From an uncultured Anaerolinea sp. (GTDB lineage: Bacteria > Chloroflexota > Anaerolineae > Anaerolineales > Villigracilaceae): 29,809 nt of DNA. Positions 1 to 18,934 of the stretch are shown here, piece by piece. Made by a program: the position numbers and the translations under genes. Every line of letters begins with the position of its first letter. Position 1 is the stretch's first letter. The stretch is from positions 1 through 29,809 of the forward strand of contig CAZBRI010000001.1 in NCBI GenBank assembly GCA_964494055.1, written 5' to 3'. A model generated the notes under the pieces. That model did not search any database. It was not told the DNA's origin and worked only from the letters and a program-made list of their open reading frames with translations.

Positions 1-46
1 TACACGGCTCTGAACACTCTTTCCCTACACGACGCTCTTCCGATCT
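1..46 (+). other. Illumina TruSeq adapter remnant (assembly artefact): P5 tail TACAC + 8-nt i5 index GGCTCTGA + Read-1 primer
   Basis: 14-46 reads ACACTCTTTCCCTACACGACGCTCTTCCGATCT, the TruSeq Read-1 primer. 1-5 TACAC is the end of P5, and 6-13 GGCTCTGA is recalled as the D504 index. Confidence 0.98.
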
Positions 47-1080
47 AGGAAATCTACAACGGCATGTGTAAATTCATGTTCATAGCCAATCACATGTCCT
101 GGCGGCCACCACCCGCCGATATAAGGATGGGTTGAATTTGTAACAAGGATCGTTCTGAATCCCTGTTCATCAGCCGGATCTTCCAGGTTCAAGTACTGGA
201 GTTCATTCATTCTTTCCAGGTTGAAAATCAAGCTGCCTTTGCTGCCATAGATCTCAAAATAATTATAATTTTTTCGGCCGCTGGCAAACCGGCTGGATTC
301 AAACGAGCCAAGTGCGCCATTTTTAAACTCAACCACCATGAAAGCAGCATCATCAACGGTTACCTGACCCATGTCTTCGCCGGCAGAACCAGATTTGAAA
401 GTTCCAGCGTCCTTACCAGGTAACGGTCGTTCTTTAACAAAGGTTTTCAGCATCGCACTGACACTGTCAACTTCACCTATTAAATAACGAGCCAGGTCCA
501 CACTGTGAGAATTGAGGTCATAATGGGGGCCAGCACCTGCAAATTTTTTTTGCAGATGCCATGTCAGCGGGAAGTTGGGATCCGTGATCCAATCCTGGAG
601 ATAAGTACCACGCCAGTGGAAAATCTGACCGATCTTACCCTCCTCGATCATTTTCTTTGCAAAAGTGATCGCAGGTGTTCTTCGATAGTTATGATTCAAG
701 TAATGCAGAACACCAGCTTTTTCTGCCGCCTCATACATTTCTTTTGCTTCTGCATAATTTAGAGCAACGGGTTTTTCACAGAATATTTGTTTTCCGTTCT
801 TCGCGGCGGCCAACACAATTTCTTTGTGAAGAAAGGTTGGTGTACAAATATCAATAATATCGATGTCCGGCCGTTCAACGACTTTTTTCCAATCGTCAGA
901 GGTTTCTTCCCAACCCCAGTTTTTTGCAAATTCGCCAGTCCCTGCTTGATCCTGGCCGCATGCAACTTTTAAAACCGGTTGTAAACCAACACTGAAGAAT
1001 TTAGGGGCGGAAGTCCAGGCATTACTGTGTGCCTTTCCCATAAACTTCGTCCCAATAATGGCAACATTAACTTTTTTCAA
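47..1080 (-). CDS. Gfo/Idh/MocA family NAD-dependent oxidoreductase (levoglucosan-dehydrogenase-like clade), 3'-truncated by the contig end
   Basis: Motifs [35 protein letters not shown] and DLNSHSVD. Likely TTG start at 1080 with AAGGAG upstream. The ORF-track C-terminus DRKSVV* is adapter-derived. Confidence 0.9.
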
Positions 1081-1143
1081 GGGGTTTTCTCCTTTTTTTA
1101 GCAACTCTTTTTAGTGAGGGTCTTATTTTTCCAAAATGCTGGA

Positions 1144-2007
1144 TTAGACCAGTGCCGCAGCGATTTTCTTGAGTTCCTTCACACTTAAGGCAACAGCCTC
1201 TTCTTCACGCTCTGTCCAATCTGTGTGCGGGTGATCGATTTCAACAGCCAGGAAACCTTTAAAGTTGGCTTTATGCAGCAGCTGAGCAAGTGCCTGGTTG
1301 TTGATTAAACCCTGTCCAACTGGAACACCAGCAAAGAAATGCCAATCAGTGGGCCTGGCGTTTTTATCGGGCATCAGGTCTTTCACATGGGTCGCAAGAA
1401 CATATGGGGCTAATTTTTCCATTCCAGCGATCGGGTCGTCCAAAAGGCGGAGGAAATTTCCTGTATCAAAATTCAAACCAAAATATTCAGAATCCACTTC
1501 AGTCAGTAATTGCAGGATCTCGTCAGAAGTAAAGTCAATGTGATTCTCAACAGCCAGTTTTACACCGAAATCTTTTGCAACGACTACAGCTTTCTTAAAC
1601 ATTTCGACCAGGGCTTTGATTTGCGGACCATGGGGTTCATGGCGAAACATTAAACTGCTTCCGACAACACGCATTACATCTGCGCCTATGGCTTTGGCAT
1701 TGGGAATGCTTGCAACCATTTCATCGTAAGCAGTCCAATTTTGGCCTCGTTCCAGTCCATCGGGATGACCCCAGGCGTAAACTCTATCAAATTTATATTC
1801 ATCAAGCTTCGTTTTTAGATCTTTAAACCATGCCAGGTCAGCTTTGGCAGGAAAAAAACAGGACTCCAACGAAACACCATCCACATCTAATTCTTTCGCG
1901 CGGGCAAGGAAATCCTGCATTGTATAATTTTTGGCGGGTGGTTTTTGATCCGGATACACTTCACCAAAAAAACGGTGATAACAATAACTATCGATTCCTA
2001 TTTTCAT
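1144..2007 (-). CDS. Sugar phosphate isomerase/epimerase family protein (xylose-isomerase-like/AP endonuclease 2 TIM barrel)
   Basis: Four metal-ligand motifs VENH, FDTGN, THVKD and VEID, plus GQGLIN. AGGAGG RBS upstream. Confidence 0.85.
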   Translation of the reverse strand: MKIGIDSYCYHRFFGEVYPDQKPPAKNYTMQDFLARAKELDVDGVSLESCFFPAKADLAWFKDLKTKLDEYKFDRVYAWGHPDGLERGQNWTAYDEMVASIPNAKAIGADVMRVVGSSLMFRHEPHGPQIKALVEMFKKAVVVAKDFGVKLAVENHIDFTSDEILQLLTEVDSEYFGLNFDTGNFLRLLDDPIAGMEKLAPYVLATHVKDLMPDKNARPTDWHFFAGVPVGQGLINNQALAQLLHKANFKGFLAVEIDHPHTDWTEREEEAVALSVKELKKIAAALV

Positions 2008-2263: not shown

Positions 2264-2291
2264 TTGACACCGGTTACAATTTTGCTATAAT
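2264..2291 (+). promoter_or_regulatory. sigma70 consensus promoter of the gntR operon (TTGACA-16-TATAAT with extended -10 TG)
   Basis: TTGACA at 2264-2269, TG at 2283-2284, TATAAT at 2286-2291. Confidence 0.75.
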
Positions 2292-2298
2292 TACAAGT

Positions 2299-2316
2299 TG
2301 TAATAACAGGATTACA
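2299..2316. promoter_or_regulatory. Putative GntR operator, copy 2 (TGTAATAACAGGATTACA)
   Basis: 2295-2316 is 21/22 identical to 16192-16213. It overlaps the palindrome ATTACAA-G-TTGTAAT (2290-2304) and covers the expected TSS. Confidence 0.7.
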
Positions 2317-2344: not shown

Positions 2345-3100
2345 ATGGGCGAAACAATTAAATTTGATAGCTATGTGCCTTATTACATTCAGTTAATGGA
2401 TATTCTCAAAGAAAAAATTCAACAAAAGACCTGGCAGCCCGGAGACCAGATTCCAGCGGAACAGGACCTTTGTGAACAATATGGCATAAGCCGTACTGTT
2501 GTCAGGCAGGCATTAAGAGAGATGGAACTTGAAGGTGCTATTAATCGCCGTAAAGGTAAAGGTACCTTTATTGCTATGCCAAAAATCAGTGAGGGCCTTG
2601 CTCAAAAACTGACTGGTTTTTACCAGGACATGATTGAACGTGGTCTTAAACCTGTTACAAAAGTTTTACATCAACTTGTTATTCCAGCCACTGAAAAGGT
2701 TGCCCAATTTCTCAATATCGAACCCGGTACAAAAGTGATCAAAATCCAAAGGCTCAGATATATCAACGATGAACCAATTCAAATGGTCACCACTTATTTG
2801 CCTTATGAGATCTGTCCTCAACTTGCTGAAGTCGATCTAACCAATCAATCCTTGTATCAATACCTGGAAAAAGAATGCGGTGTGTTTATTGCCAAAGGCC
2901 GCAGATACATTGAAGCTGTTCTGGCCAATGAGAATGAAGCTGCCCTGCTGGGTGTTGAAAAAGGGGCTCCGTTACTAATGTTAGACAGCATCAGTTTCTC
3001 TGGTACAGGACAACCACTTGAGTATTATCACGCATTGCACCGCGGCGATAGGTCCAGGTTTGAAGTCGAATTATGGCGTTCGCATGATTTAGAGAATTAG
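2345..3100 (+). CDS. GntR family transcriptional regulator, HutC subfamily (wHTH + UTRA)
   Basis: N-terminal PYYIQL...IPAEQDLCEQYGISRTVVRQAL...GKGTF wHTH. C-terminal UTRA-like domain (IQRLRYINDEP...EYYHALHRGDRSRF). Confidence 0.93.
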   Translation: MGETIKFDSYVPYYIQLMDILKEKIQQKTWQPGDQIPAEQDLCEQYGISRTVVRQALREMELEGAINRRKGKGTFIAMPKISEGLAQKLTGFYQDMIERGLKPVTKVLHQLVIPATEKVAQFLNIEPGTKVIKIQRLRYINDEPIQMVTTYLPYEICPQLAEVDLTNQSLYQYLEKECGVFIAKGRRYIEAVLANENEAALLGVEKGAPLLMLDSISFSGTGQPLEYYHALHRGDRSRFEVELWRSHDLEN

Positions 3101-3151
3101 GCTGTTATTTTTAATAACTAAAAACTTATTCAATACCTGTTGGAGAGTAGA

Positions 3152-4684
3152 ATGCAAAAAAAATACCTGGTTGGAGTTGACCTGGGAACAAGTGCAACAA
3201 AAGCCGCCATCTATCAAATAGATGGAACTTTAGTTGCTGAATCAATGATTGAAGTTCCTCTTGTACATCCAAAACCTGGTGTCGTCGAACAGAATAACGA
3301 CGATTTTTACACTACTGCTGCCCGGAGTGTAAAGCGCTGCATCGACTCAAGCGGTATCAACCCTTCTGAAATTGTAAGCATTGCATTCGATTCTCAAATG
3401 GCCGGTGTCGGTCTTGTTAATGAGGATTTTAAACCTGTCTCGCATTTTGACTCATGGCTGGACATGCGCTGCCAGCCGTTTATTGAATGGATGGACAAAG
3501 ACGCCGGGGAAAGAATCACTCAGCTCACAGGATGTCCTCCAACATGTGATCATGGTCCTAAAATGCTCTGGTGGAAACACGAACACCCTGATCTCTATAA
3601 TCAAACAGCCAAGTTCATTATGCCGGGTACTTATGTTGCCATTCGTGCATCGAGTTTAAAAACTGAAGATACGTTTATCGATCATACCTATATTCATTTT
3701 TCAGGGTTCAGTGATGCCAAAAATGGATCATGGTCAAAGGAACTATGTGATCAATTCGGTCTCGATATTGAAAAACTCCCAAAAATCGTAGATCCCTGTG
3801 ATATTGTCGGTGAATTATCTGAAAATGCAGCCCGGGAATTTGGGCTTCAACCGGGTACTCCTATAGCTGCCGGCGCTGGTGACACAGCAGCAAATGCCCT
3901 TGGTGCCGGAATAGTCAGAAATGGCATGTTGTTTGATGTTGCTGGAACAGCATCTGTATTAGCAGGCTGTACGAATCAGTATGTAGCAGACACTTCCAAC
4001 CGGGCACTACTAACCATGCGTTCTGTAATTCCAGGTTTATGGCACCCGCTTGCCTACATCGGAGGCGGAGGTCTGGCACTAAGATGGTTCCGGGATCAAT
4101 TTTTCAATACTAATTGCGGGTCTCTAAACCAGAACTCCGAAGAAATTTATGACAAGATGCTCTCAATGGCAGAAAATATCAACCCTGGTTCGGATGGGCT
4201 TTTCTTTTCTCCCCATCTGGGCGGACGTATCTGTCCATCCAACCCCGCCATGCGCGGTGCCTGGATTGGAGCATCCTGGTCTCATACCCAGGCTCACTTT
4301 TCCCGGGCCATCCTCGAAAGTGTTGCTTACGAGTATGCATATTATTTAAAGATCTTGAAAAGCCTGATCCCGGATCTTGAGCTGATACAAGCCAGGGTGA
4401 TTGGCGGCGGCGCTCGAAGTCGTTTTTGGAATCAAATTAAAGCAGACATCCTGAATGTTCCCACTCAAAAATTAAATGGCAGCGAATTTGGAACCTGGGG
4501 TTCAGCTATGATCGCTGGAAAAGCAGTTGGGGCAATCAAGGATCTTTCTTCCCATGCTGAAAACACTGCTGTTTTGAGCGGTAACGCGTGTGAACCCGGG
4601 AAGGCAAATCATGAGGTATATAAACCTTTAATTGAGAAATATATTTCATTACAACGTTTGTTGAATGAATTTTATTCAGCATAA
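3152..4684 (+). CDS. FGGY family carbohydrate kinase (xylulokinase-like)
   Basis: Motifs GVDLGTS, WLDMR, GAGDTAA, GERI/GGRICP and GGGARS. ATG at 3152 with GGAG upstream is preferred over the TTG at 3140. Confidence 0.9.
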   Translation: MQKKYLVGVDLGTSATKAAIYQIDGTLVAESMIEVPLVHPKPGVVEQNNDDFYTTAARSVKRCIDSSGINPSEIVSIAFDSQMAGVGLVNEDFKPVSHFDSWLDMRCQPFIEWMDKDAGERITQLTGCPPTCDHGPKMLWWKHEHPDLYNQTAKFIMPGTYVAIRASSLKTEDTFIDHTYIHFSGFSDAKNGSWSKELCDQFGLDIEKLPKIVDPCDIVGELSENAAREFGLQPGTPIAAGAGDTAANALGAGIVRNGMLFDVAGTASVLAGCTNQYVADTSNRALLTMRSVIPGLWHPLAYIGGGGLALRWFRDQFFNTNCGSLNQNSEEIYDKMLSMAENINPGSDGLFFSPHLGGRICPSNPAMRGAWIGASWSHTQAHFSRAILESVAYEYAYYLKILKSLIPDLELIQARVIGGGARSRFWNQIKADILNVPTQKLNGSEFGTWGSAMIAGKAVGAIKDLSSHAENTAVLSGNACEPGKANHEVYKPLIEKYISLQRLLNEFYSA

Positions 4685-4728
4685 CAGATCGTATCGATAA
4701 AGATAAAAGACAAAAACAGGAGTAGTTA

Positions 4729-5775
4729 ATGAAACAACAGGTTCGAATTTGTATGATTGGTGCCGGCAGAGTAGGGAAAAATCATTCCAGGGCTCTTACC
4801 CGCCATATTCCTAACGGAAAGATAGTTGCCCTTGTTGACCCAATGGCAGCAGTACGCGAAGAAACCGCTCGTGACTTTTCAATCGATAATCAATTTAACA
4901 GTATTGAAGAAGCCCTTGAAAAGGTTGAGTTTGAGGCAGTCATTATTACAACACCGACACCAACTCATCTGCCTCTTACAAGAATTGCAGCTGAAAACAA
5001 AAAACATGTTTTTCTTGAAAAACCAATGGCTCTCAACCTGGCTGAATGTGATGAAATAATTGAAGCTACTTCAAGACATTCTGTGATTTTGCAATTGGGA
5101 TTCATGCGTCGTTTTGATCCTGAATTTGTTGCAGCAGCAGAAAGAATACAGGCTGGTGAGATCGGAACCCCAATGATGATCAAGTCAAACACTCACGGCC
5201 CCGGACTTCCCCCGCCCTGGGCATGTGATCTTCGCACCTCCAACGGCATGCTGGCCGAAGTGAACAGCCACGATTGGGATACCACCCGCTGGCTGCTTGG
5301 ATCAAATTATTTGAGAGTCTACACAGAAGTTGCCAACTTTAAAGGTAAGGCAAATAATATTGATATCCCCAATTTCTACGACAATGTCCTGGTAAATATC
5401 AAATTTGAAAGCGGTGCACTCGGCCAAATTTCAGGGATATGCCCCTGTGGATACGGGTATGATGCAAGAGTTGAAATTGTCGGGGATAAAGGTATTATGC
5501 AGATTGGTGAACTGGCTGGACAATCCATCGTTGTCTGTACAAACAGGGACCAGGGTCTGATCACCCCAATTTACCGCACATGGCCGGAACGCTTTGCCTG
5601 GGCATATATTTACGAATTGGAACATTTTGTTGCTTGTGTACAAAATGAAACACACCCCAAAGCTGGCGGCTTTGATGGCCGCTGGGCTGTTGCCGGGGTC
5701 CTCGCCGGAACAAAATCCTTCCTGGAAGAACGCCCTGTGACCCTAAAAGAAATTTTAGACGCTGAAAAAAAATAA
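4729..5775 (+). CDS. Gfo/Idh/MocA oxidoreductase, myo-inositol 2-dehydrogenase (IolG)-like
   Basis: Motifs IGAGRVG, EKP, GFMRRFDP and EVNSHDWD. Confidence 0.88.
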   Translation: MKQQVRICMIGAGRVGKNHSRALTRHIPNGKIVALVDPMAAVREETARDFSIDNQFNSIEEALEKVEFEAVIITTPTPTHLPLTRIAAENKKHVFLEKPMALNLAECDEIIEATSRHSVILQLGFMRRFDPEFVAAAERIQAGEIGTPMMIKSNTHGPGLPPPWACDLRTSNGMLAEVNSHDWDTTRWLLGSNYLRVYTEVANFKGKANNIDIPNFYDNVLVNIKFESGALGQISGICPCGYGYDARVEIVGDKGIMQIGELAGQSIVVCTNRDQGLITPIYRTWPERFAWAYIYELEHFVACVQNETHPKAGGFDGRWAVAGVLAGTKSFLEERPVTLKEILDAEKK

Positions 5776-5787
5776 AGGTAAAAAATT

Positions 5788-6831
5788 ATGTTAGCTGCTG
5801 TTTATCATGGACCCAACGATCTGCGTGTTGAAAATGTTGAAATTCCAAAAATTACTACTGGTGAATTACTCGTCAAAGTGTTGAGTGCCAGTATTTGCGG
5901 TACTGATCTACGGATATTTCATGGAAATCACCGCATGTATGCCCCCGGTACCGTCCGGATCCCCGGTCATGAAGTGGTTGGAACCATAGCTGAAATTGGT
6001 GCAGGAATAACCAATTATTCTATTGGTCAGCGTGTCTTCTGCGCGCCAAATACTGGCTGTGGTCATTGTACCCAATGTGTTTCAGGAAACAATAATCTTT
6101 GCTCAAATTACGATGCGATCGGTGTTACATCCGACGGTGGTTTTGCTGAATATGTTCGCATTCCTGCCAATTCTGTACAACAGGGAAATATCATTCCCAT
6201 CAGTGAAACTGTCGATACAGCTGTTGCCGCTTTAATGGAACCATTTGCTTGTGTGTTGCGCGGGCAAAATGCATTAAACATGAAGCCCGGCGAGGTTGTC
6301 CTTGTCATCGGTGCCGGCCCGATTGGTATCATGCATGCCAAACTTGCCCGAGCCCGTGGTGCCGGCCGCGTCCTAGTCAGTGAACCGATCGCAGAAAGAG
6401 CCATCCAGGCCAGGCGAATGGGAGCAGACAGGGTAATCGATCCGGTAAACGAAAACTTGAAGACAGCAGTCCTCGAAGAAAGTAACGGACGAGGAGCAGA
6501 TCTGATCATAGTTGCTGCGCCAGTCCATGTTGCCCAGGAACAGGCTCTCGATCTGGCCGCCATTGGCGGAAGAATTAATTTTTTTGGCGGGTTACCAAAA
6601 GATAGACCCGCCATCAATTTCGATTCCAACATTGTCCATTACAGGGAACTGATCATTACTGCAACAACCGCCTGCAGCACCGCTGATTGCTGGCAGGCAG
6701 CCCGGATCGTCAATTCAGGCCTGGTTGATCTTTCAGATATTGTCAGCCAACGCTTTCCACTCAATAAAGCTGTAGAAGCATTTACAGCCGCTGAGGACAG
6801 AAAATCTTTAAAAATTGTTTTGGAGCCCTAA
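5788..6831 (+). CDS. Zn-dependent medium-chain (polyol/sorbitol-type) dehydrogenase
   Basis: Catalytic-zinc motifs ICGTD and GHE, structural-zinc motif CGHCTQC..NLC, EP, and Rossmann GAGPIG. Confidence 0.92.
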   Translation: MLAAVYHGPNDLRVENVEIPKITTGELLVKVLSASICGTDLRIFHGNHRMYAPGTVRIPGHEVVGTIAEIGAGITNYSIGQRVFCAPNTGCGHCTQCVSGNNNLCSNYDAIGVTSDGGFAEYVRIPANSVQQGNIIPISETVDTAVAALMEPFACVLRGQNALNMKPGEVVLVIGAGPIGIMHAKLARARGAGRVLVSEPIAERAIQARRMGADRVIDPVNENLKTAVLEESNGRGADLIIVAAPVHVAQEQALDLAAIGGRINFFGGLPKDRPAINFDSNIVHYRELIITATTACSTADCWQAARIVNSGLVDLSDIVSQRFPLNKAVEAFTAAEDRKSLKIVLEP

Positions 6832-6837
6832 CATCAG

Positions 6838-7800
6838 ATGACCTCACATTCTGACTTCCCAATACCGCGGCCAGTGATGACGGTTTTGGGTCCCGTATCA
6901 TATGAGCATCTTGGAATCACTGATGCCCATAACCATCTCTGGATCGAGCCGGTTGATGGTGCAGACAAAAATGCCCCGGTTTTAACTGATTACAATGCGA
7001 TCGTTAAAGAATTGGTGGAATACCGAAGCGATGGGGGAGCTTCAATATTAGACTGTCAGCCAACGGGCTGCGGCCGAAATGGAAATAAACTTTTCACCCT
7101 TTCAAAAGAAACCGGTATAAACATTATTGCAAGTACTGGTTTCCACCGAAAGAAATATTATGCTCCAGATCACTGGATGTTTAAAAATAACTCACAGCAA
7201 TGTTACGATCTGTTTCTCAAAGAGATTCAGGAAGGATTGATCGAAACAGCTGAAACTTCCAACCCGGTTCTTGCCGGCTTTGTAAAAGTTGCAGTAGAAC
7301 AAAATTGGGCAGATTGTTCAAGGGATGCGCTTGATGGAGCAGCCGAAGCAGTAATACAAACTGGGGTTGTTATGGAAATCCATACTGAAAAAGGCGCACT
7401 CGCCGAAAAAGTCAGCCTGTACCTGTGCGATAAAGGCGTGTCACCAGGTCAGTTGGTTTTTTGCCATATGGATAAGCGGCCCGATTTGGGTCTGCATAAA
7501 GAACTTGCCCGGCTCGGTGTACTTCTTGAGTACGACACTTTTTTCCGTCCGAAATATAACCCGGAAGAAACGCTCTGGCCGCTGATCACGCAAATGGTTG
7601 TTGCCGGTTTCGCCGAGAGTATTGCTCTCGCTACAGATATGGCAGAATCCGAATCATATCATTTTATCGGCGGGGGTCCTGGTCTTGCCAGTTTCCCCTC
7701 CAAAATTCAAAAGAGATTAATTGAAAATGAAATTCCGGGTAAAGCAAGAACTCACTTATTGGGCGGTAATATCGCTCGAAGGCTGTCCGGGATTAAATAA
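6838..7800 (+). CDS. Phosphotriesterase-related amidohydrolase (PTE/Php family; likely lactonase)
   Basis: N-terminal VMTVLGPV...LGITDAHNHL (HxH), STGFH, bridging K (GFVKVA), H (IHTE), H (CHMD) and D (LATD). Confidence 0.88.
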   Translation: MTSHSDFPIPRPVMTVLGPVSYEHLGITDAHNHLWIEPVDGADKNAPVLTDYNAIVKELVEYRSDGGASILDCQPTGCGRNGNKLFTLSKETGINIIASTGFHRKKYYAPDHWMFKNNSQQCYDLFLKEIQEGLIETAETSNPVLAGFVKVAVEQNWADCSRDALDGAAEAVIQTGVVMEIHTEKGALAEKVSLYLCDKGVSPGQLVFCHMDKRPDLGLHKELARLGVLLEYDTFFRPKYNPEETLWPLITQMVVAGFAESIALATDMAESESYHFIGGGPGLASFPSKIQKRLIENEIPGKARTHLLGGNIARRLSGIK

Positions 7801-7818
7801 TTTATTTGGAGAAAATAC

Positions 7819-8403
7819 ATGTTAGATGTACCTTTTAGTTTTATTTTGCCCATGCCTCAAGTGATCCCTTCCAGGGTAGACAATCATATCCAGCGCAGAT
7901 TATCTGCATTAAAAGGTCAGTTTTCTGACCAGGCAGCTTACAAATCAATGCTTGATCTTGAAGACCAATTGATCTATGAAGTGTATGAGATCAAACGACC
8001 AGAAGTTGAAGGGGAACTTTTAATGGGAATTTCCATTGTGCACCCCGGAAAAGTTGGGAATGAATTTTTTATGACAAAGGGTCATTTTCATTCTGTTTTG
8101 GAAACTTCAGAAATATATTACTGTATGCGTGGTGAAGGATATATGGTTATGGAAACTCCAGAAGGTGATACTTCTGTTGAGCGTTTATCCCCCGGTCAAA
8201 TACTTTATGTTCCCCCTCGATGGGCTCACCGCAGCGTTTGTACATCCAGGCAGGAAGACCTTGTTACATTCTTCGCATACCCTGCCAACGCAGGCCACGA
8301 TTATGGAACCATTGAAACACAGGGCTTTAAGAAAATTGTTATTGACGGACAAAACGGCCCGCTGATCATTGATAACCCTCGCTCCCTGAATCGGGGGGCA
8401 TGA
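7819..8403 (+). CDS. Cupin-type (archaeal-like) glucose-6-phosphate isomerase family protein
   Basis: Motifs PGKVGNEFFMTKGHFH, EIYY..GEG, PPRWAH and GHDYGTI, as in Thermococcales cupin PGI. Confidence 0.88.
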   Translation: MLDVPFSFILPMPQVIPSRVDNHIQRRLSALKGQFSDQAAYKSMLDLEDQLIYEVYEIKRPEVEGELLMGISIVHPGKVGNEFFMTKGHFHSVLETSEIYYCMRGEGYMVMETPEGDTSVERLSPGQILYVPPRWAHRSVCTSRQEDLVTFFAYPANAGHDYGTIETQGFKKIVIDGQNGPLIIDNPRSLNRGA

Positions 8404-9368
8404 TGGATCTGAAAAAATGCCGTGTACTGGTTACGCCTACATCGTATGGGAAAAATGATGCCAGGCTGAAAACCGAATTGGAAGCACAAGTTGGTGAAGT
8501 AATTTACAATCCGACTGGTAAACCTCTCTCTTCAAAAGATGTTGCGTCCCTGATCAAAGGGGTGGATGGTTATATTGCCGGTTTGGATGTTATTGATGAA
8601 GAAGCCTTAAAAAACGCAGATAAACTCAAGGTGATCTCGCGTTATGGCGTTGGTGTGGACAGTGTTGACCTGAAAGCAGCCGCTGCCAGGGGAATCACAG
8701 TCACAAATACCCCTGGGGCAAATTCTGTTTCAGTCGCCGAACTCGCTCTCGGAATGATTTTATGTCTTGCACGACAAATCCCTGAAGCTGATAAAGCGGT
8801 TCATGAAGGAAAATATCCACGCCTTACAGGTGTCAGCCTGGAAGGAAAAACAATAGGAATTCTTGGCCTTGGTGCTATTGGTAAACAGCTTGCCCGGCGC
8901 CTGTCCGGTTTTGACTGCCGGATAATCGCTTACGATCCATTTCCAGATATGACATTTGCGGAAAAAAACCAGGTGAAATTTGCATCTTTGAGTGAAGTTG
9001 CTGCACAGGCTGATTTTTTAAGCCTTCATCTTCCATTACTGCCTGAAACAAAACTGCTTGTCAATGAAACATTTTTATACAAGATGAAAAAAGGTTCCTG
9101 CCTGGTCAATACATCCCGCGGGGAAGTAGTGGACGAAACAGCTTTATTTAATGCCCTTCAAAGCGGTCAAATTAAAGGAGCTGGCCTGGATGCTTTTTCT
9201 GTGGAACCGCCAGACCCATCCAATCCCCTGCTCTCTTTGCCGCAGGTAATCGCAACACCTCACCTAGGTGCACAGACGGATGGTGCAACCAGTAACATGG
9301 GATGGTTTGCCATGAAAGATTGCCTGTCAGTATTAAAAAATGAACAACCTGTTTACAAGGTTGCCTGA
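8400..9368 (+). CDS. D-isomer-specific 2-hydroxyacid dehydrogenase (phosphoglycerate-dehydrogenase-like, no ACT domain)
   Basis: Motifs SRYGVG, NTPGANSVSVAE, GLGAIG, NTSRG and TPHLG. ATGA overlap with the upstream gene. Confidence 0.92.
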   Translation: MMDLKKCRVLVTPTSYGKNDARLKTELEAQVGEVIYNPTGKPLSSKDVASLIKGVDGYIAGLDVIDEEALKNADKLKVISRYGVGVDSVDLKAAAARGITVTNTPGANSVSVAELALGMILCLARQIPEADKAVHEGKYPRLTGVSLEGKTIGILGLGAIGKQLARRLSGFDCRIIAYDPFPDMTFAEKNQVKFASLSEVAAQADFLSLHLPLLPETKLLVNETFLYKMKKGSCLVNTSRGEVVDETALFNALQSGQIKGAGLDAFSVEPPDPSNPLLSLPQVIATPHLGAQTDGATSNMGWFAMKDCLSVLKNEQPVYKVA

Positions 9369-9392
9369 GAATTTCTGTTTTCGGAGTGAAAA

Positions 9393-10037
9393 ATGAATAA
9401 ACTTGATGTATTGGAAAAAGTTAAAGAATTAGGTTTGCTGGCAGTTATCAGGGGTCCATCACCGGAACTAACAGTAAAAATGGTTGAAGCCCTGGTCAAT
9501 GGCGGTGTATTAGGGATCGAAATCACTTACAGTACCCCGAATGCTGAGGAAGTTGTGACAACTCTCTCAAAAAAATTTGGGGACAGTATCGTGCTTGGCA
9601 TGGGAACATTAACAAGTCCCAGCCAAGTACAAACAGCCCGGGCTGCCGGCGCAAATTTTTTAGTCAGCCCAATCTGTGAACCAACACTTGTTAAAGCAAT
9701 GGCAGAAAGCGGTTTGCTCTGTATGGCAGGAAGCCTGACACCGACCGAGGTTTTTCAGGCGTACACTCTTGGTGCCGATGTTGTTAAGATATTTCCGGGG
9801 TCACTCGGTGGTCCGGCTTATGTAAAAGCTCTCAAGGGTCCATTCCCCCAGATCCCTATGATGCCAACCGGTGGTGTGAATGCCGGCAATATGGCTGAAT
9901 GGTTCGCCACCGGGGTTGTAGCGGTAGGTGCTGGCAGTGAATTATGTCCGCCGCAGCTTGCCAAAGATGGAAAATTCGATGAAATATCCAAACGGGCTGC
10001 TGATTTTGTGCAGGTCGTTAATGCTTCCAGGAAATAA
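9393..10037 (+). CDS. eda: KDPG/KHG aldolase family (2-keto-3-deoxy-phosphogluconate aldolase-like)
   Basis: Motifs LAVIR, IEIT (catalytic Glu), GMGT, VKIFP (Schiff-base Lys) and MPTGGV. Confidence 0.9.
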   Translation: MNKLDVLEKVKELGLLAVIRGPSPELTVKMVEALVNGGVLGIEITYSTPNAEEVVTTLSKKFGDSIVLGMGTLTSPSQVQTARAAGANFLVSPICEPTLVKAMAESGLLCMAGSLTPTEVFQAYTLGADVVKIFPGSLGGPAYVKALKGPFPQIPMMPTGGVNAGNMAEWFATGVVAVGAGSELCPPQLAKDGKFDEISKRAADFVQVVNASRK

Positions 10038-10051
10038 TAAAAGGAGTAAAA

Positions 10052-11029
10052 ATGAACAGCAGTATGAACGTTACCAGCCCGCATTATCCAATCGTCACAA
10101 AAAATGTCCCTACATTTTATTTCATCGGCGTAACGACCGGGAAATCATCGATCATGAAAGTCTTTCCACTATGGATGAAAGTCCTCGGCCGTGAAGAAGT
10201 TATCATGGAAGGTATGGATCGAAAAATTCATGATGAAAGAGATGCTTATAGAAGTGCCGTTGCACAGATCAAGTACGACCCGATGTCATTAGGTGCACTG
10301 GTTACCACCCACAAAATTGATTTATTAACTGCTTCCAGGGATATGTTTGATTATCTTGATCCCTATGCCCTCCTTACCGATGAGGTTTCAAGCATTTCGA
10401 AACTGGATGGCAGGCTCGAAGGACATGCAAAAGACCCGCTTACATCAGGTGCCAGCCTGGATGCGATTATTGAAAAAGACTATTTTGGTAAAACAAACGG
10501 GGATGTATTATCTTTTGGGGCGGGGGGTTCTGCCATCGCCACCCTGCTGCATTTGATCAACAAAAAAGACAAAGGCGACCGCCCAAAAAAGTTTACACTC
10601 GTCAATCGCTCACAGGGGCGTTTGGATCACGCCCGCAGCATGGTTAGTTCTTTGAAAACAGACATTGAAATTGAATATATCTGCAATTCAGATCCCAAAG
10701 TTAATGACGCCATCATGGAAAAATTCCCGCCATACAGTGTGATTATCAATGCAACAGGCATGGGGAAAGATACCCCTGGATCCCCGATCACCTGGGAAGG
10801 AAAATTCCCGATGCACAGCCTCTCATGGGAATTTAATTACCGTGGAGAACTTGATTACCTTCATCAATCACTCGCCCAGGTGGAAAGCCGGAATATTAAA
10901 GTCGAAGATGGCTGGTTATACTTTGTCCATGGTTGGACACAGGTTGTAGCTCAGGTACTGCACGTTGACCTGACACCTGAATTATTTGATAAATTAAACC
11001 AGGCAGCTTCCACCGTACGCGGTAAATAA
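10052..11029 (+). CDS. Divergent shikimate-dehydrogenase-fold NAD(P) oxidoreductase
   Basis: Motifs VTTHK (cf. AroE VTxPxK), GHAKD (cf. GxNTD), FGAGGSA, VNRS and INATGMG. Confidence 0.75.
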   Translation: MNSSMNVTSPHYPIVTKNVPTFYFIGVTTGKSSIMKVFPLWMKVLGREEVIMEGMDRKIHDERDAYRSAVAQIKYDPMSLGALVTTHKIDLLTASRDMFDYLDPYALLTDEVSSISKLDGRLEGHAKDPLTSGASLDAIIEKDYFGKTNGDVLSFGAGGSAIATLLHLINKKDKGDRPKKFTLVNRSQGRLDHARSMVSSLKTDIEIEYICNSDPKVNDAIMEKFPPYSVIINATGMGKDTPGSPITWEGKFPMHSLSWEFNYRGELDYLHQSLAQVESRNIKVEDGWLYFVHGWTQVVAQVLHVDLTPELFDKLNQAASTVRGK

Positions 11030-11052: not shown

Positions 11053-11089
11053 AAATGAACACATTGTTATTTCTGCAATGTGTTCATTT
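11053..11089. terminator. Bidirectional intrinsic terminator between convergent genes
   Basis: Perfect 14-bp inverted repeat AAATGAACACATTG / CAATGTGTTCATTT with a 9-nt loop. It overlaps the stop codon of the minus-strand gene. Confidence 0.7.
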
Positions 11090-12451
11090 TATTAACCGGG
11101 CAGATGCATGATCAATAATGTTCCAGATTTGCTCGACCCAGTCTTTATGTTCTGGTTTCATTAATACCGACCGCATACAAGTAATGGTTTCTTCATCCTG
11201 CTCCATATCACCTGGCAAGTCAAAGAGACTTATGGGAAGGTTTGCCAGCGCCAGGTAAAGGTGCTCTTTTTCTGCTTCTTCAAACAGTTTTTTCGCCAGT
11301 TCAGATGCAGCACTAACTTTTTTCGCCCGAAATATCCAGATGATGATGTCTAATTCCGGATTAAATGCTGTAATAAAACGCTTGTCCAGGTATAACTTAT
11401 TCCATAAAATCAAAGCCGCTTCCCGTCCGGCTTCCAAACCTTTGGCAAATTCTCCTCCCTTAACCAAAGGAAGCAGCTTTTGGGTTGCCCACAATCCAAC
11501 TGCAGCAGCCCCTGGACGTGAGCACTCAAGACTGATCTCTCCAAGATGTAATTCTGACGAACTGAAATAAGTGTACGGGGAATTGTGTTTATAAAAACGA
11601 CCAACAGATGGATCTTTAAATAAGATACACCCGCAACCATATGGCTGCAATCCATGTTTATGTGGATCAACGACGATTGAATCAGCCTCATGAATATGTT
11701 CATATATTTCCGCTGTTTGGGCACTCAGATTACCGGCCAATTTAAAATAACCACCATAAGCTGAATCAACGTGAATTCTGAAACCGTATTTTTTACGCAA
11801 TTTTAGAATATCGAGAAGCGGATCAATTGATCCGGTTGCTGTTGTACCTATTGTGACGACGACAGTTCCAATCCCGCCTCTCTCGAGTCGATTTTGAAGG
11901 GCATTCAAGTCCATCCTGCCGAGCCTGTCACTCGCGATAGATTCATAATTTAGTTTCAAGACAGAACTGATCCGGCTGTGTGTGTAGTGAGCCTGGTCTG
12001 AAGCCAGCACAATACCATCAGGATTGATCTTTCCTGCAACCCATAAAGCTTCGAGGTTTGCCATTGTTCCGCCGCCAGTTAAGTGGCCCAGGTATGTATC
12101 CCAGCCAAACATGCCGGCAATTTCCCGGACTGCTTCTTTTTCCATTTGAGAACTGGCTTTACCGCCATCCAGTGCATGGTTGTTTGGATTGATCCACATG
12201 GCAAGCATATAAGCAAGGCGGGCTGCTGGATGAGGCGGTTTGAGCATCTGCCCTGCATACAACGGATGAAAGTAAGGATAATTATCCTGAAGCCGTTGAG
12301 CAGTTTCAAGCAAAACACTTTCCAGCTGATTGTTTATGGGGTTTTTTTCGGCAGGCTGAAGATAAGAAAAACCCGAATCCATTTTTTCAATTGCTTTTCT
12401 TAGTATATCCAGCGTCTCAAGATCTAAATTGGAGAATGATTGATTATTCAT
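11084..12451 (-). CDS. Group II PLP-dependent decarboxylase (GAD/TDC/aspartate-1-decarboxylase family)
   Basis: Motifs GGTMANLEAL, HYTH, GTTATGSID, HVDSAYGG and DPHKH (PLP Lys). Confidence 0.9.
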   Translation of the reverse strand: MNNQSFSNLDLETLDILRKAIEKMDSGFSYLQPAEKNPINNQLESVLLETAQRLQDNYPYFHPLYAGQMLKPPHPAARLAYMLAMWINPNNHALDGGKASSQMEKEAVREIAGMFGWDTYLGHLTGGGTMANLEALWVAGKINPDGIVLASDQAHYTHSRISSVLKLNYESIASDRLGRMDLNALQNRLERGGIGTVVVTIGTTATGSIDPLLDILKLRKKYGFRIHVDSAYGGYFKLAGNLSAQTAEIYEHIHEADSIVVDPHKHGLQPYGCGCILFKDPSVGRFYKHNSPYTYFSSSELHLGEISLECSRPGAAAVGLWATQKLLPLVKGGEFAKGLEAGREAALILWNKLYLDKRFITAFNPELDIIIWIFRAKKVSAASELAKKLFEEAEKEHLYLALANLPISLFDLPGDMEQDEETITCMRSVLMKPEHKDWVEQIWNIIDHASARLIK

Positions 12452-12514
12452 TTTTATTCCTGGTAAATAGATTTATTCAAACCTGCTCAATTTATGTTTA
12501 CTTCACAAAGAGAA

Positions 12515-13507
12515 TTACCCCGGGTACCATACAACACGCGGATCATCAGCTGACCGTTTGTATTCCCAGGACTCGTCTATCATCCTTTTCAGGTCATATT
12601 CCGGACGCCATCCTAAAAGAAATTTAGCCTTTGTATTATCCAGCCAGGTGGAATGAAACGGCGTTTTTATATCAACAAGCGGCAGACCCCGGCTGACAGC
12701 CAGGTATTCACCAAGTTTCCTATAATCAACCGGTTCATCCATACATATATTAAATAACTGCTGATGAGCTTTCGGATTCCCCAGCGCCAACAGGATCGCA
12801 CTAACCAGGTCATTCACATGAATAAAATTTCTTTTTACCGGTTTACTGTCTGGATCGAGCATGATCGGGATAGTTGAACTCCGTTGGTAAGCAGCTGCCT
12901 GTTCAGGACCAACCAGGTCTCGCCAGCGCGGACCTCCAAAAACATCATCTCCAAAAGACAATTGATATTTAAAATCATCTTTCTCCATGATCCATGGGGC
13001 TCTCAAGCAGCAGCCATTCAAATTATATTGAATATAATACTGCTCCAACATGACCTCTTCCAGCACTTTTGATAGTGCGTAACAACCCGGGTAGGCAGAA
13101 TGCTTTTGGGTTTCAGTGACCGGGATGGCATGTGGATAAACAAAATGACCCACTCCTGCGTCGCCGCCAATCAGGATAAACTGTTGAAAAGCGGGACTTG
13201 TTCGGCAGGTTTCAAGCAGCCAGAACAGGCCTTTGACAGCAACATCCATTATTTGATCCGGGGTATCTTTACAGGTAGCAAGGTGAACAACATGGGTCAC
13301 CCCATCCATGGCAGTTTCAACTGTCTGACGGTCTTCAATTGACCCCCGGACAATCTCCAAACGGGCATTTCCTTTCAAAACTCGGTGATGGCACAAAGCT
13401 CGAATCTGGAATTTATCAAAATTATGATCATCCAGCAGCCTATTTATTAAAGTCTGCCCGACTTTTCCGGCAGCGCCGGTAATTAATATTCGATCTTGAA
13501 GAGACAT
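12515..13507 (-). CDS. Extended SDR, NAD-dependent epimerase/dehydratase family
   Basis: Motifs ITGAAGKVG, HLA, YALSK (YxxxK) and IHVNDL. ATG at 13507 with GGAG RBS. Confidence 0.87.
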   Translation of the reverse strand: MSLQDRILITGAAGKVGQTLINRLLDDHNFDKFQIRALCHHRVLKGNARLEIVRGSIEDRQTVETAMDGVTHVVHLATCKDTPDQIMDVAVKGLFWLLETCRTSPAFQQFILIGGDAGVGHFVYPHAIPVTETQKHSAYPGCYALSKVLEEVMLEQYYIQYNLNGCCLRAPWIMEKDDFKYQLSFGDDVFGGPRWRDLVGPEQAAAYQRSSTIPIMLDPDSKPVKRNFIHVNDLVSAILLALGNPKAHQQLFNICMDEPVDYRKLGEYLAVSRGLPLVDIKTPFHSTWLDNTKAKFLLGWRPEYDLKRMIDESWEYKRSADDPRVVWYPG

Positions 13508-13680
13508 TTTTACTCCAAAAATTTCACAACTCAAATAAGGCTTTAAGCCGCACTATTAACGGTAAACCCGTCTAATTGTATTCCAAAGTTGCTAAAAACC
13601 CCCTTGGTGCCAGGAAACACTTATTTGATTTTCCAGTTTTTTGAATAAGTTCAAATTTTTATATCTTAACACTAATAACA

Positions 13681-13716
13681 AATAGACCCTGCCATAGCAC
13701 ATTGACAGGGTCTATT
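13681..13716 (-). terminator. Intrinsic terminator downstream of the deoC-like/FGGY operon
   Basis: Inverted repeat AATAGACCCTG / CAGGGTCTATT, extendable with G-U pairs on the minus strand and followed by a U-rich tract, about 25 nt past the stop at 13741. Confidence 0.65.
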
Positions 13717-13740
13717 AATCAAAAAGTTTTTGCATCCAAT

Positions 13741-15285: not shown

Positions 15286-15307
15286 ATTAGTTCTCCAAAT
15301 TGAAAAT

Positions 15308-16006
15308 CTAAAATTCTGTGAAACCACCGGGAAATTCAGAACATTCTTGTAATATCAGTGAGGCAGAACGTATACCAATTCCAAAACGCCTTGCACCTCT
15401 GCGGTACATTTCCAGTATCGTATCAAGACTTCTTACACCGCCGGAAGCTTTTATCAAAGCCGAATCTCCGATAATAGATTTTATTAAACTCACATTTTCC
15501 AGGGTAGCACCAGTCGGGGTATATCCGGTTCCAGTTTTAATAAAAGCTGCCCCGGCCTTTACAGCCAATTCACTTCCCAACCTTATTTGATCGTTATTCA
15601 AATAATGGCATTCCAGTATAACTTTAACTGGTCTGCCCTCCGCCGCATCAATGACGGCCTTTATGTCATCAAAGACATATTTTTCATCACCCGAAATTAA
15701 TTTCCCAATACTGATCACCATATCCAGCTCATCACATTCCAGCTGAACAAGTTCCCGGGCTTCTGCAGACTTAATCCTGGTAGTTTGTCCCCCGCTTGGG
15801 AAGCCAACATTTCCAGAAATTTTTATCCCGGGTGTCTCTTTTAATAATTCTTTCGCATAATTTGTTTGACTAGGCAGGGTTGTTACCAGGAAGCAGTGAT
15901 GCTGCATCGCAACCCTGACAGTCTCTTGAATAATGTTATCGCTGTGATCAGGTTGAACAGCACTAAGATCGATCATCTGTGCAATGTCGTAATAAGTCAA
16001 TTTCAT
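15308..16006 (-). CDS. deoC: Deoxyribose-phosphate aldolase (DeoC) family class I aldolase
   Basis: Motifs VGFPSG, ELDMVI, VKVILE, IKTGTG (Schiff-base Lys) and IKASGGVR. ATG at 16006 with AAAGGTG RBS. Confidence 0.88.
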   Translation of the reverse strand: MKLTYYDIAQMIDLSAVQPDHSDNIIQETVRVAMQHHCFLVTTLPSQTNYAKELLKETPGIKISGNVGFPSGGQTTRIKSAEARELVQLECDELDMVISIGKLISGDEKYVFDDIKAVIDAAEGRPVKVILECHYLNNDQIRLGSELAVKAGAAFIKTGTGYTPTGATLENVSLIKSIIGDSALIKASGGVRSLDTILEMYRRGARRFGIGIRSASLILQECSEFPGGFTEF

Positions 16007-16162
16007 GGGTTCACCTTTTATTATGGAAACAACCTTTTTTTGTTGAAGAAAATTCCCCAACAGCAAAAAACTTATCTCCTGAAAATTTTCCAATATTGAA
16101 ATACCAATTCTTGGATTACTTGATATTCTATTTTTCCTAATAAATCTGGTAGCTTAGCGCTA

Positions 16163-16191: not shown

Positions 16192-16195
16192 AAGT

Positions 16196-16213
16196 TGTAA
16201 TTACAGGATTACA
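16196..16213. promoter_or_regulatory. Putative GntR operator, copy 3 (TGTAATTACAGGATTACA)
   Basis: Contains the perfect palindrome TGTAATTACA. Near-identical to the motifs at 2105 and 2299. Confidence 0.7.
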
Positions 16214-17356: not shown

Positions 17357-17386
17357 TAAGTCTATTTTATTCCCGGGAGAATTTCC

Positions 17387-18445: not shown

Positions 18446-18464
18446 TTTTACTGGAAGAAAATAA

Positions 18465-18854: not shown

Positions 18855-18934
18855 AAATTTGGTTTTGATTCACTCATTAAAGGTTATTCCCGGAATAATG
18901 CAAAATTATCTTTGTCACGGAGGTATGTAATTCA

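Follow-up and report, generated by a model that had tools for sequence, protein, structure and literature searches.

A repressor-controlled sugar-breakdown operon of Anaerolineae with a KDPG aldolase and no recognisable dehydratase

The stretch of DNA analysed here (the window: 29,809 nucleotides from an uncultured Anaerolinea sp., contig CAZBRI010000001.1) carries a repressor gene followed by eight enzyme genes, with related genes on either side. The features are as follows.

25–1104, minus strand: gfo0, a levoglucosan-dehydrogenase-like Gfo/Idh/MocA protein, divergent from the operon
1144–2007, minus strand: tim0, a xylose-isomerase-like TIM barrel, paired with gfo0
2264–2291, plus strand: promoter of the gntR operon, sigma-70-type (TTGACA, 16 nt, TATAAT, extended TG)
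2295–2316, plus strand: 22-bp operator candidate, AAGTTGTAATAACAGGATTACA, directly 3' of the -10 box
2345–3100, plus strand: gntR, a GntR/HutC-type repressor with a UTRA effector domain (PF00392 and PF07702)
3140–4684, plus strand: fggy1, an FGGY sugar kinase
4729–5775, plus strand: IolG-like Gfo/Idh/MocA dehydrogenase
5788–6831, plus strand: Zn-dependent polyol-type dehydrogenase (Zn-ADH)
6838–7800, plus strand: PTE-family binuclear-metal hydrolase (PF02126)
7819–8403, plus strand: predicted cupin-type phosphoglucose isomerase (cPGI) orthologue (PF06560)
8400–9368, plus strand: D-2-hydroxyacid dehydrogenase, closest to PGDH, without an ACT domain
9393–10037, plus strand: Eda, a predicted KDPG/KHG aldolase (TIGR01182)
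10052–11029, plus strand: AroE-like NAD(P) oxidoreductase with a shikimate-dehydrogenase fold
11053–11089 (approximate), no strand assigned: hairpin terminator with a 15-bp stem, between convergent genes
13741–16093, minus strand: DeoC, which passes the TIGR00126 cut-off, and a second FGGY kinase
16192–16213, plus strand: second copy of the operator candidate, between the deoC and tim2 promoters
16385–20176, plus strand: tim2, Zn-ADH2, a VOC/glyoxalase-fold protein and an OYE-family flavin oxidoreductase, the last with a putative Cys4 Fe-S motif recorded in an initial annotation of the window

The eight-gene cluster is a real, repressor-controlled sugar-breakdown operon. Reading of the open reading frames upholds the operon named in the initial annotation: eight co-directional genes on the plus strand that end at a hairpin. 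Of the extent given there (3152–11029) the end is correct, and the start shifts to 3140, where fggy1 begins. The genes were said to be spaced by about 6–45 nt with one ATGA overlap; the gaps, in gene order, are 44, 12, 6, 18, -4 (the ATGA overlap), 24 and 14 nt, a range of 6–44 nt. The strong terminator claimed for the operon end is borne out by folding (dG -18.5 kcal/mol, z = -5.55), and a scan for consensus terminators did not list this hairpin. Transcription opens with gntR, ahead of the enzyme genes, from a promoter that matches 12 of 12 consensus positions. The operator candidate occurs twice in the window without a mismatch (chance expectation 0), and these are the only sites in the whole assembly at up to three mismatches. 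Of 80 relatives, 48 have an operator-like site (at most four mismatches), usually some 50 bp 5' of gntR. Because they have this operator candidate in common, the operon, the deoC/kinase pair and the tim2/Zn-ADH2/VOC/OYE unit would form one regulon. In most relatives the deoC/kinase pair runs in the same direction as the AroE-like gene and follows it directly, and operon and regulon genes form a single 15-gene string.

All eight family assignments of the initial annotation stand after profile and structure comparison. The kinase scores 274 bits on the XylB model and 250 bits on GntK, both below cut-off; the Gfo/Idh/MocA dehydrogenase scores 260 bits on the IolG model (cut-off 355); and the Zn-ADH scores 223, 204 and 118 bits on Tdh, IolM and L-idonate 5-dehydrogenase, respectively, all below cut-offs. 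The PTE-family enzyme keeps all six metal ligands (HxH, K, H, H, D), has 3MSR and 3OVG as its best structure matches, with 3PNZ further down the list, and is probably a phospho-sugar lactonase. The cupin reaches 182 bits against archaeal cPGI structures (E = 7e-53 to 1J3P; about 55% identity, estimated by eye from the alignment). It keeps the motifs TKGHFH, EIYY, PPRWAHR and AGHDYGTI (ligand roles from PMC6627849) and, by its sequence, is a true cupin-PGI orthologue. Eda scores 189 bits against a cut-off of 156 and is about 45% identical to the Thermotoga maritima KDPG aldolase. Its catalytic motifs are kept, with the K-I-F-P-G lysine/phenylalanine segment common to that pyruvate-specific enzyme, and to judge from these motifs it is a canonical KDPG aldolase. 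The non-deoxy aldolase substrate once suggested is therefore disfavoured. The AroE-like protein matches neither a Pfam family nor a PDB sequence. Its fold is backed by an AlphaFold2 model (pLDDT 95.9) and by Foldseek, which aligns it with 5-ketofructose reductase and AroE/YdiB/quinate dehydrogenase (E = 2e-16, TM 0.65–0.8). A conserved Lys/Asp pair is common to all of these, yet identity is only 15–19%, and the motifs NATGxGKDxPGSP and DGWxYFxxGW set the family apart from its AroE/YdiB relatives.

The cassette is conserved in 80 Anaerolineae species genomes, and about 40 distant metagenome loci retain its membership with the gene order shuffled. Synteny on this scale excludes a chance grouping. 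In the 41 distant loci of at least 8 kb, the partners found with the AroE-like gene are the cupin (32 loci), the D-2-hydroxyacid dehydrogenase (29), Eda (15) and PTE (14). Many distant Eda-bearing cassettes lack PTE; delta-lactones also hydrolyse spontaneously, so occasional loss of a lactonase is expected. Across cassettes, the tightest gene pair is Eda with the AroE-like gene.

The initial annotation saw no recognisable dehydratase, and indeed no such family is found anywhere in the window. It further advised a look at syntenic clusters, and there, too, no standard dehydratase is conserved with the cassette. Specifically, none of the 164 cassette loci searched holds an IlvD/Edd, UxuA or UxaA gene, and an enolase-superfamily gene lies near three. 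Among 35 cassette genomes, many of those compared being incomplete metagenome bins (completeness of the assembly that contains the window: 77%), IlvD/Edd is absent from 15 and all four classical dehydratase families from 8. Where a single IlvD/Edd gene is present, it is IlvD rather than Edd, because it adjoins an acetolactate-synthase-like gene. The isolate Longilinea arvoryzae has the eight genes alone, and its genome contains no IlvD/Edd, UxuA or UxaA gene and no tim2 orthologue. A housekeeping PGI is encoded in all eight cassette genomes checked and Zwf in seven; in six of eight, the cassette Eda is the sole PF01081 gene.

It is conceivable, although highly unlikely in our estimation, that KDPG comes from an unlinked dehydratase belonging to no recognised family, or that several short pathways under a common regulator make up the cluster as a mosaic; either way, the gap would be an artefact of treating the cluster as a single line. 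The incompleteness of the bins leaves room for this, and a 444-aa protein with no Pfam family accompanies the cassette, in L168 as a fusion with the AroE-like protein. However, the Atlas neighbours of that protein carry a fucose-isomerase family label, pointing to an isomerase. The membership kept across phyla under shuffled order, together with the sole Eda in most genomes, also argues against such a mosaic or distant supplier.

Our tentative hypothesis is that the operon enzymes break down a phosphorylated hexose analogue by an oxidative, Entner-Doudoroff-like route that uses no sugar-acid dehydratase: a dehydrogenase replaces Edd, and C3 is already deoxy. The FGGY kinase, Gfo/Idh/MocA and Zn-ADH would convert an imported compound to the entry phosphate. 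The cupin PGI would then turn ketose 6-phosphate into aldose 6-phosphate, the AroE-fold dehydrogenase would oxidise the ring C1 hydroxyl to a lactone, and the PTE-family enzyme would open the phospho-lactone. Next, the PGDH-like D-2-hydroxyacid dehydrogenase, in the position of Edd in the classical pathway, would oxidise the C2 hydroxyl to a 2-oxo acid, which Eda would cleave to pyruvate and glyceraldehyde 3-phosphate. We infer the order of the steps, the carbon attacked by each dehydrogenase and the deoxy nature of the substrate. A canonical Eda needs a deoxy C3; thus, the route would take as its substrate either a 3-deoxy hexose or hexulose or a sugar that had undergone deoxygenation earlier, as a keto-sugar.

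Several observations support this dehydrogenase-for-Edd route. Each of the five core families has a single counterpart among Pgi, Zwf, Pgl, Edd and Eda; distant loci keep the membership despite shuffled order; and a natural fusion (P0123, 661 aa) joins the D-2-hydroxyacid dehydrogenase to the AroE-like protein. Given the canonical active-site motifs of Eda and cPGI, the substrate should closely resemble KDPG and glucose/fructose 6-phosphate, and a second, regulated enzyme set beside the housekeeping PGI and Zwf points to an analogue, not to glucose 6-phosphate. Classical dehydratases are neither linked to the cassette nor consistently found in its genomes, where the cassette Eda is commonly the only one, and the regulon includes DeoC, whose sole established substrate, to our knowledge, is a deoxy-sugar phosphate. 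Other facts weaken the proposal. Eda is detected in a minority of the distant loci, we know of no abundant natural source of 3-deoxyhexose, and no AroE-fold enzyme is known to us as an aldose-6-phosphate 1-dehydrogenase. The Gfo/Idh/MocA protein could carry out the C1 step, and the AroE-like protein would then have no function; the tight pairing of Eda with the AroE-like gene would also fit a reductase acting on the aldolase product. Our literature search found no paper describing a 3-deoxyhexose route of this kind.

The isolate with the eight genes alone also fits a somewhat unlikely reading, in which a cassette enzyme itself removes the C3 hydroxyl: either PTE acting on the 6-phospho-lactone, or Gfo/Idh/MocA as an NAD-dependent, redox-neutral (de)hydratase. 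PTE is the most plausible agent, because the alpha-proton of a lactone is far more acidic than that of a carboxylate; elimination, then hydrolysis, would give KDPG directly. The amidohydrolase superfamily includes a hydratase, LigJ. For Gfo/Idh/MocA enzymes such as YjhC, interconversion of hydrated and dehydrated sugars is reported (PMC7315737). The canonical-looking cPGI and Eda would then act on genuine glucose 6-phosphate and KDPG. Against this, the PTE ligand set is that of a standard hydrolase with no oddity, many distant Eda-holding cassettes dispense with PTE, and the strongly conserved D-2-hydroxyacid dehydrogenase would stand idle. We also know of no precedent for elimination in COG1735.

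That dehydrogenase is put to use if there is no deoxygenation at all, a reading we judge unlikely: it would make 2-keto-6-phosphogluconate or an epimer, as KguD-type enzymes interconvert 6-phosphogluconate and 2-keto-6-phosphogluconate, and Eda would release hydroxypyruvate and glyceraldehyde 3-phosphate. A cassette dehydrogenase would reduce hydroxypyruvate to glycerate, and dehydration would be deferred to enolase. This scheme employs all eight genes nearly in operon order and accounts for the Eda/AroE-like pairing. However, the Eda motifs match a pyruvate-specific enzyme, no Eda-family enzyme is known to us to use hydroxypyruvate, and the family search found no glycerate kinase in the cluster.

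The notion of a TIM barrel supplying the dehydration, raised in the initial annotation, fares unevenly. The tim2 protein matches a solved 2-hydroxy-3-keto-glucal hydratase (8RO4, E = 1e-21) and sits behind the common operator, but a tim2 match (E ≤ 1e-20) is missing in 4 of the 11 cassette genomes searched, L. arvoryzae included, and the other seven hold relatives at 28–39% identity only. The same evidence bears on a decidedly improbable alternative, in which deoxygenation precedes the acid stage through keto-sugar chemistry of the regulon (oxidation by Gfo/Idh/MocA or Zn-ADH, elimination/hydration by tim0/tim2, ene-reduction by the Fe-S OYE) and the eight genes merely finish the job. In its favour, gfo0, whose unit with tim0 runs on into contig C24, reaches 378 bits against the levoglucosan dehydrogenase model, 54 of 80 genome loci have a TIM barrel no more than 10 kb away, and the regulon is a single gene string in most relatives. 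Yet tim2, Zn-ADH2 and OYE are present beside only 3 of 41 distant cassettes, and a 3-keto elimination chemically takes O1 or O5, not O3.

The dehydratase-free oxidative route can be set beside known systems. With the classical Entner-Doudoroff pathway the cassette has in common an isomerase, a C1 dehydrogenase candidate, a lactonase candidate, a KDPG aldolase and phosphorylated intermediates. It differs in that Edd is absent from the cassette, and often from the genome, with a PGDH-like dehydrogenase in its place; the isomerase is of the cupin type, the candidate lactonase comes from the PTE family, and AroE-fold and Gfo/Idh/MocA proteins, not Zwf, are the candidate dehydrogenases. Zwf and a PGI are encoded elsewhere, apart from the cassette. 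In the Pseudomonas kgu operon, as in parts of the cassette, a sugar-acid kinase, KguD (a D-2-hydroxyacid-dehydrogenase family member acting on 6-phospho-2-keto-aldonate) and the xylose-isomerase-like TIM barrel KguE feed an Eda step. Unlike the cassette, kgu hands 6-phosphogluconate to Edd, has a PfkB rather than an FGGY kinase, and lacks cupin PGI, PTE and AroE-like enzymes. Escherichia coli GntII (L-idonate) and fungal D-glucuronate routes use Zn-ADH, keto-aldonate reductases and an FGGY gluconokinase and are dehydratase-free up to 6-phosphogluconate, where they end and Edd or Gnd takes over; the cassette, by contrast, has a built-in Eda and no Edd. Finally, the 3-dehydrogenase and hydratase of oxidative-eliminative glycoside and levoglucosan pathways (LgdA, LgdB1 and a hydratase; AtOGE, AtHYD; PMC10628242, PMC7676230) have homologues in gfo0 and tim2, respectively, but these two lie outside the eight-gene operon, do not reach equivalog cut-offs and do not accompany every cassette.

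The cassette recurs in many anaerobic bacteria, across phyla, and the operon probably encodes a previously undescribed route.

The main finding is a conserved cassette that pairs an Eda-type aldolase with no recognisable dehydratase. Specifically, eight ORFs on the + strand (3140-11029) run in one direction, separated by gaps of 44, 12, 6, 18, -4, 24, and 14 nt. They encode an FGGY kinase (fggy1), an IolG-like Gfo/Idh/MocA protein, a Zn-ADH, a PTE-family protein, a cupin, a D-2-hydroxyacid dehydrogenase, Eda, and an AroE-like protein. These gaps bear out the tight spacing with one overlap described in the initial annotation, and the strong terminator that it placed at the operon end is a 15-bp hairpin (dG -18.5 kcal/mol, z = -5.55). 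Its family calls were correct, and several are refined here by profile, structure, and motif comparison. Its report that no dehydratase is recognisable in the window also stands: profile searches detected no dehydratase family there. The window spans the entire contig, which belongs to a metagenome bin that is 77% complete and whose relatives belong to the Anaerolineae (phylum Chloroflexota). The genes flanking the eight ORFs are as follows.

25-1104 and 1144-2007, - strand: gfo0 and tim0 (a xylose-isomerase-like TIM barrel), the divergent pair
2345-3100: gntR, encoding a GntR/UTRA regulator, 39 nt upstream of the eight ORFs
11084-12451: PLP-dependent decarboxylase gene, inserted past the AroE-like gene, unlike most relatives
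12515-13534: SDR epimerase/dehydratase-family gene, inserted past the AroE-like gene, unlike most relatives
13741-16093, - strand: deoC and a second FGGY kinase gene (fggy2)
16385-20176, + strand: tim2 (a second such TIM barrel), a Zn-ADH, a VOC protein, and a BaiCD-like Fe-S OYE

The gntR gene is preceded by a sigma-70-type promoter (12/12 match), and a 22-bp operator-like sequence, AAGTTGTAATWACAGGATTACA, lies directly downstream of the -10 box (2295-2316). Exactly two copies occur in the window, the other (16192-16213) falling between the promoters of deoC and tim2; by chance, no repeat of this length is expected there. When up to three mismatches are allowed, these two remain the only sites in the whole assembly. 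With up to four, the site is found in 48 of the 80 relatives, typically ~50 bp upstream of gntR, and several relatives possess an additional site before tim2. A weaker site (four mismatches) lies at 2101, towards tim0. The shared site places the gntR operon, deoC, and the tim2 unit in one regulon.

Those 80 species genomes were recovered via the AroE-like protein. In their commonest layout, divergent gfo0 and tim0 are followed by gntR, fggy1, and the genes for the IolG-like protein, Zn-ADH, PTE, and cupin, and then, continuing on one strand, by those for the D-2-hydroxyacid dehydrogenase, Eda, and the AroE-like protein, deoC, fggy2, tim2, and the genes for the second Zn-ADH, VOC, and OYE. Relative to most of these genomes, deoC and fggy2 are inverted in the window (11084-16093 region). 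In 16 relatives, the spot after the AroE-like gene is occupied by a gene for a 148-aa C_GCAxxG_C_C redox protein. The divergent gfo0 unit runs on into a second contig of the same assembly (C24, 15.2 kb; also loci L100, L101, and L102), which harbors a 444-aa gene with no Pfam match, a ROK kinase, a D-psicose-3-epimerase-like TIM barrel, a CUT2-type ABC transporter, two further TIM barrels, and a second LgdA-like Gfo/Idh/MocA gene.

The cassette is patchily distributed: of 151 genomes from the window's GTDB family, just 4 carry it. Roughly 40 metagenome loci, with bioreactors, human guts, and fermentations among their sources, encode an AroE-like protein that shares 44-66% identity with that of the window; gene order there is scrambled while membership is kept. 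When ORFs are labelled solely through BLAST matches to proteins annotated earlier in the analysis, the partners of the AroE-like gene across 41 loci are the cupin (32), the D-2-hydroxyacid dehydrogenase (29), Eda (15), and PTE (14), often together with FGGY kinases, IolG-like and Zn-ADH genes, and CUT2 transporters. One 661-aa protein, P0123, fuses the D-2-hydroxyacid dehydrogenase to the AroE-like protein. A 778-aa ORF (L168:1288-3624) joins the AroE-like protein to the 444-aa protein, although this fusion may be a sequencing artefact because it is known from a single contig. The cassette is a genuine functional unit. A ~265-aa gene conserved in distant cassettes turned out to encode a DeoR regulator. 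In two Leptolinea MAGs (L045 and L047), a five-gene core is divergent from deoC, an FGGY kinase gene, and a gene of the acetoacetate-decarboxylase family, a family that includes Schiff-base aldolase-dehydratases. Locus L048 has a similar divergent arrangement, its acetoacetate-decarboxylase gene being assigned from clustering only.

Two cassette enzymes look canonical. Eda passes the TIGR01182 cut-off (189 vs 156 bits), its IEIT, KIFPG, PTGGV, and VGAGS motifs line up with Thermotoga maritima KDPG aldolase, and it has the Schiff-base Lys and catalytic Glu expected of a KDPG aldolase in the classical Entner–Doudoroff (ED) pathway. The cupin matches PF06560 and the Thermococcus/Pyrococcus cupin phosphoglucose isomerase (PGI) structures (E = 7e-53). 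Its His/His/Glu/His metal ligands and His/Tyr proton-transfer residues are intact, with roles assigned from PMC6627849; by family and residues, it qualifies as a predicted cupin-type PGI. Of the eight genomes searched for Eda, all encode PGI and seven encode Zwf outside the cassette; in six of the eight, the cassette Eda is the only PF01081 gene. The window's own assembly contains a strong stand-alone PGI (contig C624, 770 bits), which could reflect contamination or gene transfer. In six of seven relatives, only a weak PGI domain is present, within an ORF of ~920-960 aa (cut at the contig end in G125), perhaps a transaldolase–PGI fusion, judging from length.

Given the canonical-looking cupin PGI and Eda, and the housekeeping PGI and Zwf that already exist, the simplest consistent reading, which we advance tentatively, is an oxidative route dedicated to a compound closely analogous to glucose or fructose 6-phosphate but with the C3 hydroxyl already gone. 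The core parallels Pgi, Zwf, Pgl, Edd, and Eda, Edd's position being taken by a phosphoglycerate dehydrogenase (PGDH)-like enzyme; on this reading, the D-2-hydroxyacid dehydrogenase would convert a 3-deoxy-6-phospho-aldonate to KDPG. The presence of DeoC in the same regulon likewise points to deoxy-sugar phosphates. Alternatively, Eda might cleave a non-deoxy 2-keto acid to hydroxypyruvate, which we regard as unlikely and which the canonical Eda motifs disfavor.

The D-2-hydroxyacid dehydrogenase belongs to PF02826 and PF00389 and is nearest to short phosphoglycerate dehydrogenases; it is no equivalog-level SerA (TIGR01327, 275 bits vs a cut-off of 454). PTE belongs to PF02126 and retains the full set of six ligands of the binuclear centre. 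Its nearest solved structures are 3MSR/3OVG, followed by Geobacillus phosphotriesterase-like enzymes and, further down, 3PNZ; these relatives include phospho-sugar lactonases. PTE scores below the phospho-furanose lactonase equivalog NF045706 (104.7 bits vs a cut-off of 630). That PTE or the Gfo/Idh/MocA enzyme instead performs a cryptic elimination strikes us as rather doubtful.

The AroE-like protein gave no match in Pfam, NCBIfam-level, or PDB sequence searches. It scores 32 bits against the AroE model TIGR00507 (cut-off 200) and has no Shikimate_dh_N or Shikimate_DH domain in Pfam. An alignment-based AlphaFold2 model (pLDDT 95.9) shows a shikimate-dehydrogenase fold, and likeness to AroE is one of fold only; the best Foldseek match is 5-ketofructose reductase, at 15-19% identity. 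The family comprises 1,106 representative clusters at E <= 0.001. A housekeeping AroE role is rejected, as a canonical aroE lies elsewhere in the window's own genome (contig C351, with one in-frame TGA). Three cassette genomes, Longilinea arvoryzae (G001), G002, and G004, have no canonical AroE over the TIGR00507 cut-off, their best match being the AroE-like gene.

The initial annotation had proposed looking for a dehydratase in syntenic clusters elsewhere. Tblastn of 18 reference dehydratases against 164 cassette loci revealed only three dehydratase-type neighbours, all from the enolase superfamily, and no IlvD/Edd. The window's own assembly has one IlvD/Edd gene, adjoining an acetolactate-synthase-like gene, one enolase-superfamily gene besides enolase itself, and, by genome search, neither UxuA nor UxaA. 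In five genomes examined, the single IlvD/Edd copy adjoins an acetolactate-synthase-like gene.

Absence of classical dehydratase families among 35 cassette genomes, mostly bins whose completeness was not reported
IlvD/Edd (PF00920): missing from 15 of 35
UxuA: missing from 31 of 35
UxaA/GarD: missing from 29 of 35
All four families together (IlvD/Edd, UxuA, UxaA/GarD, enolase superfamily): missing from 8 of 35

The eight genomes in the last line are assemblies of 1.5-3.4 Mb, and the isolate L. arvoryzae lacks IlvD/Edd, UxuA, and UxaA. That a dehydratase is encoded away from the cassette or belongs to a family not recognised here, or that the cluster is a mosaic, we consider very unlikely. The 444-aa protein, which has no match in PDB or NCBIfam, was rejected as the missing dehydratase since its Atlas neighbours are labelled fucose-isomerase family.

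Comparison with known routes leads to no match. The cassette shares Eda with the classical ED pathway but lacks 6-phosphogluconate dehydratase (IlvD/Edd), and AroE-fold, Gfo/Idh/MocA, and PTE proteins stand where Zwf and Pgl would, Zwf being encoded elsewhere. The hexuronate/KDG route, in which UxuA or UxaA (or else KduI with KduD) feeds KdgK and Eda, calls for mannonate or altronate dehydratase or a KduI-family isomerase, and the two dehydratases are missing from most cassette genomes. The KduI/KduD branch of this route, from unsaturated uronates, is rejected because the cupin is ~55% identical to true PGIs and retains their phosphate-site motifs; the window's own genome has no PF04962 (KduI-family) gene, and polysaccharide lyases and KduI were not found in the vicinity of the cassette. 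The Thermotoga-type inositol route requires equivalog IolG, IolM, IolN, and IolO, and it and the classical inositol route fail on scores for IolG (260 vs 355 bits), IolM (204 vs 450), IolE, and IolO (<=27 bits anywhere in the window), all under cut-offs, with no IolN match in the window. Inositol is further disfavored by a separate classical IolD/IolB locus in half of the island genomes: IolD lies elsewhere in 8 of 16 (over cut-off in seven, split in G161), each with an IolB/KduI-family match. Sulfo-ED was set aside, as kinases are present without a dehydratase or sulfonate exporter.

The oxidative-eliminative 3-keto-glycoside pathway needs a 3-dehydrogenase, a lyase, and a 2-hydroxy-3-keto-glucal hydratase. 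Two genes outside the eight-gene operon come closest: gfo0 scores 378 bits against the 3-dehydrogenase model (cut-off 650), and tim2 matches the solved hydratase 8RO4 (E = 1e-21). Neither is a universal cassette partner. From enzyme families, we speculate that the 16385-20176 unit might convert 1,5-anhydro-hexitols, or other sugars that form 3-keto-glycals, under anaerobic conditions, in the order 3-oxidation, α,β-desaturation, hydration. The tim2 match would also favor a reading in which the TIM-barrel and OYE module carries out the deoxygenation upstream; yet of 11 cassette genomes searched, 4 gave no tim2 match (E <= 1e-20), and the remaining seven have only 28-39% identical relatives. We regard this reading as quite unlikely. 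Overall, the systems nearest to the cassette are ED, the Pseudomonas kgu operon, and the idonate and fungal glucuronate redox chains, and those nearest to the neighbouring genes are the oxidative-eliminative glycoside and levoglucosan pathways; this combination of enzymes occurs in none of them, and literature searches did not find the cassette described.

More broadly, there is a reasonable possibility, short of an even chance, that the cassette represents a widespread anaerobic variant of glycolysis whose Eda substrate is readied by a PGDH-like dehydrogenase rather than by a dehydratase. It could be either a 3-deoxyhexose route or a dehydratase-free ED pathway yielding hydroxypyruvate and glyceraldehyde 3-phosphate, both resting on a new AroE-fold sugar-phosphate dehydrogenase family.

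Genome annotation treats Eda-type aldolases as markers of ED or hexuronate metabolism. This conserved cassette is a case in which that deduction fails, exposing a gap in pathway maps. Its carriers are abundant, mostly uncultured fermenters of digesters, sediments, peat, and, going by sample names, termite guts, and one cultured carrier, L. arvoryzae KOME-1, makes the cassette testable. Once solved, it would add a catabolic route not described before, probably together with a new class of substrates, and functions would follow for a Pfam-less AroE-fold family of >1,000 representative clusters, a bacterial cupin PGI, and a PTE-family lactonase.
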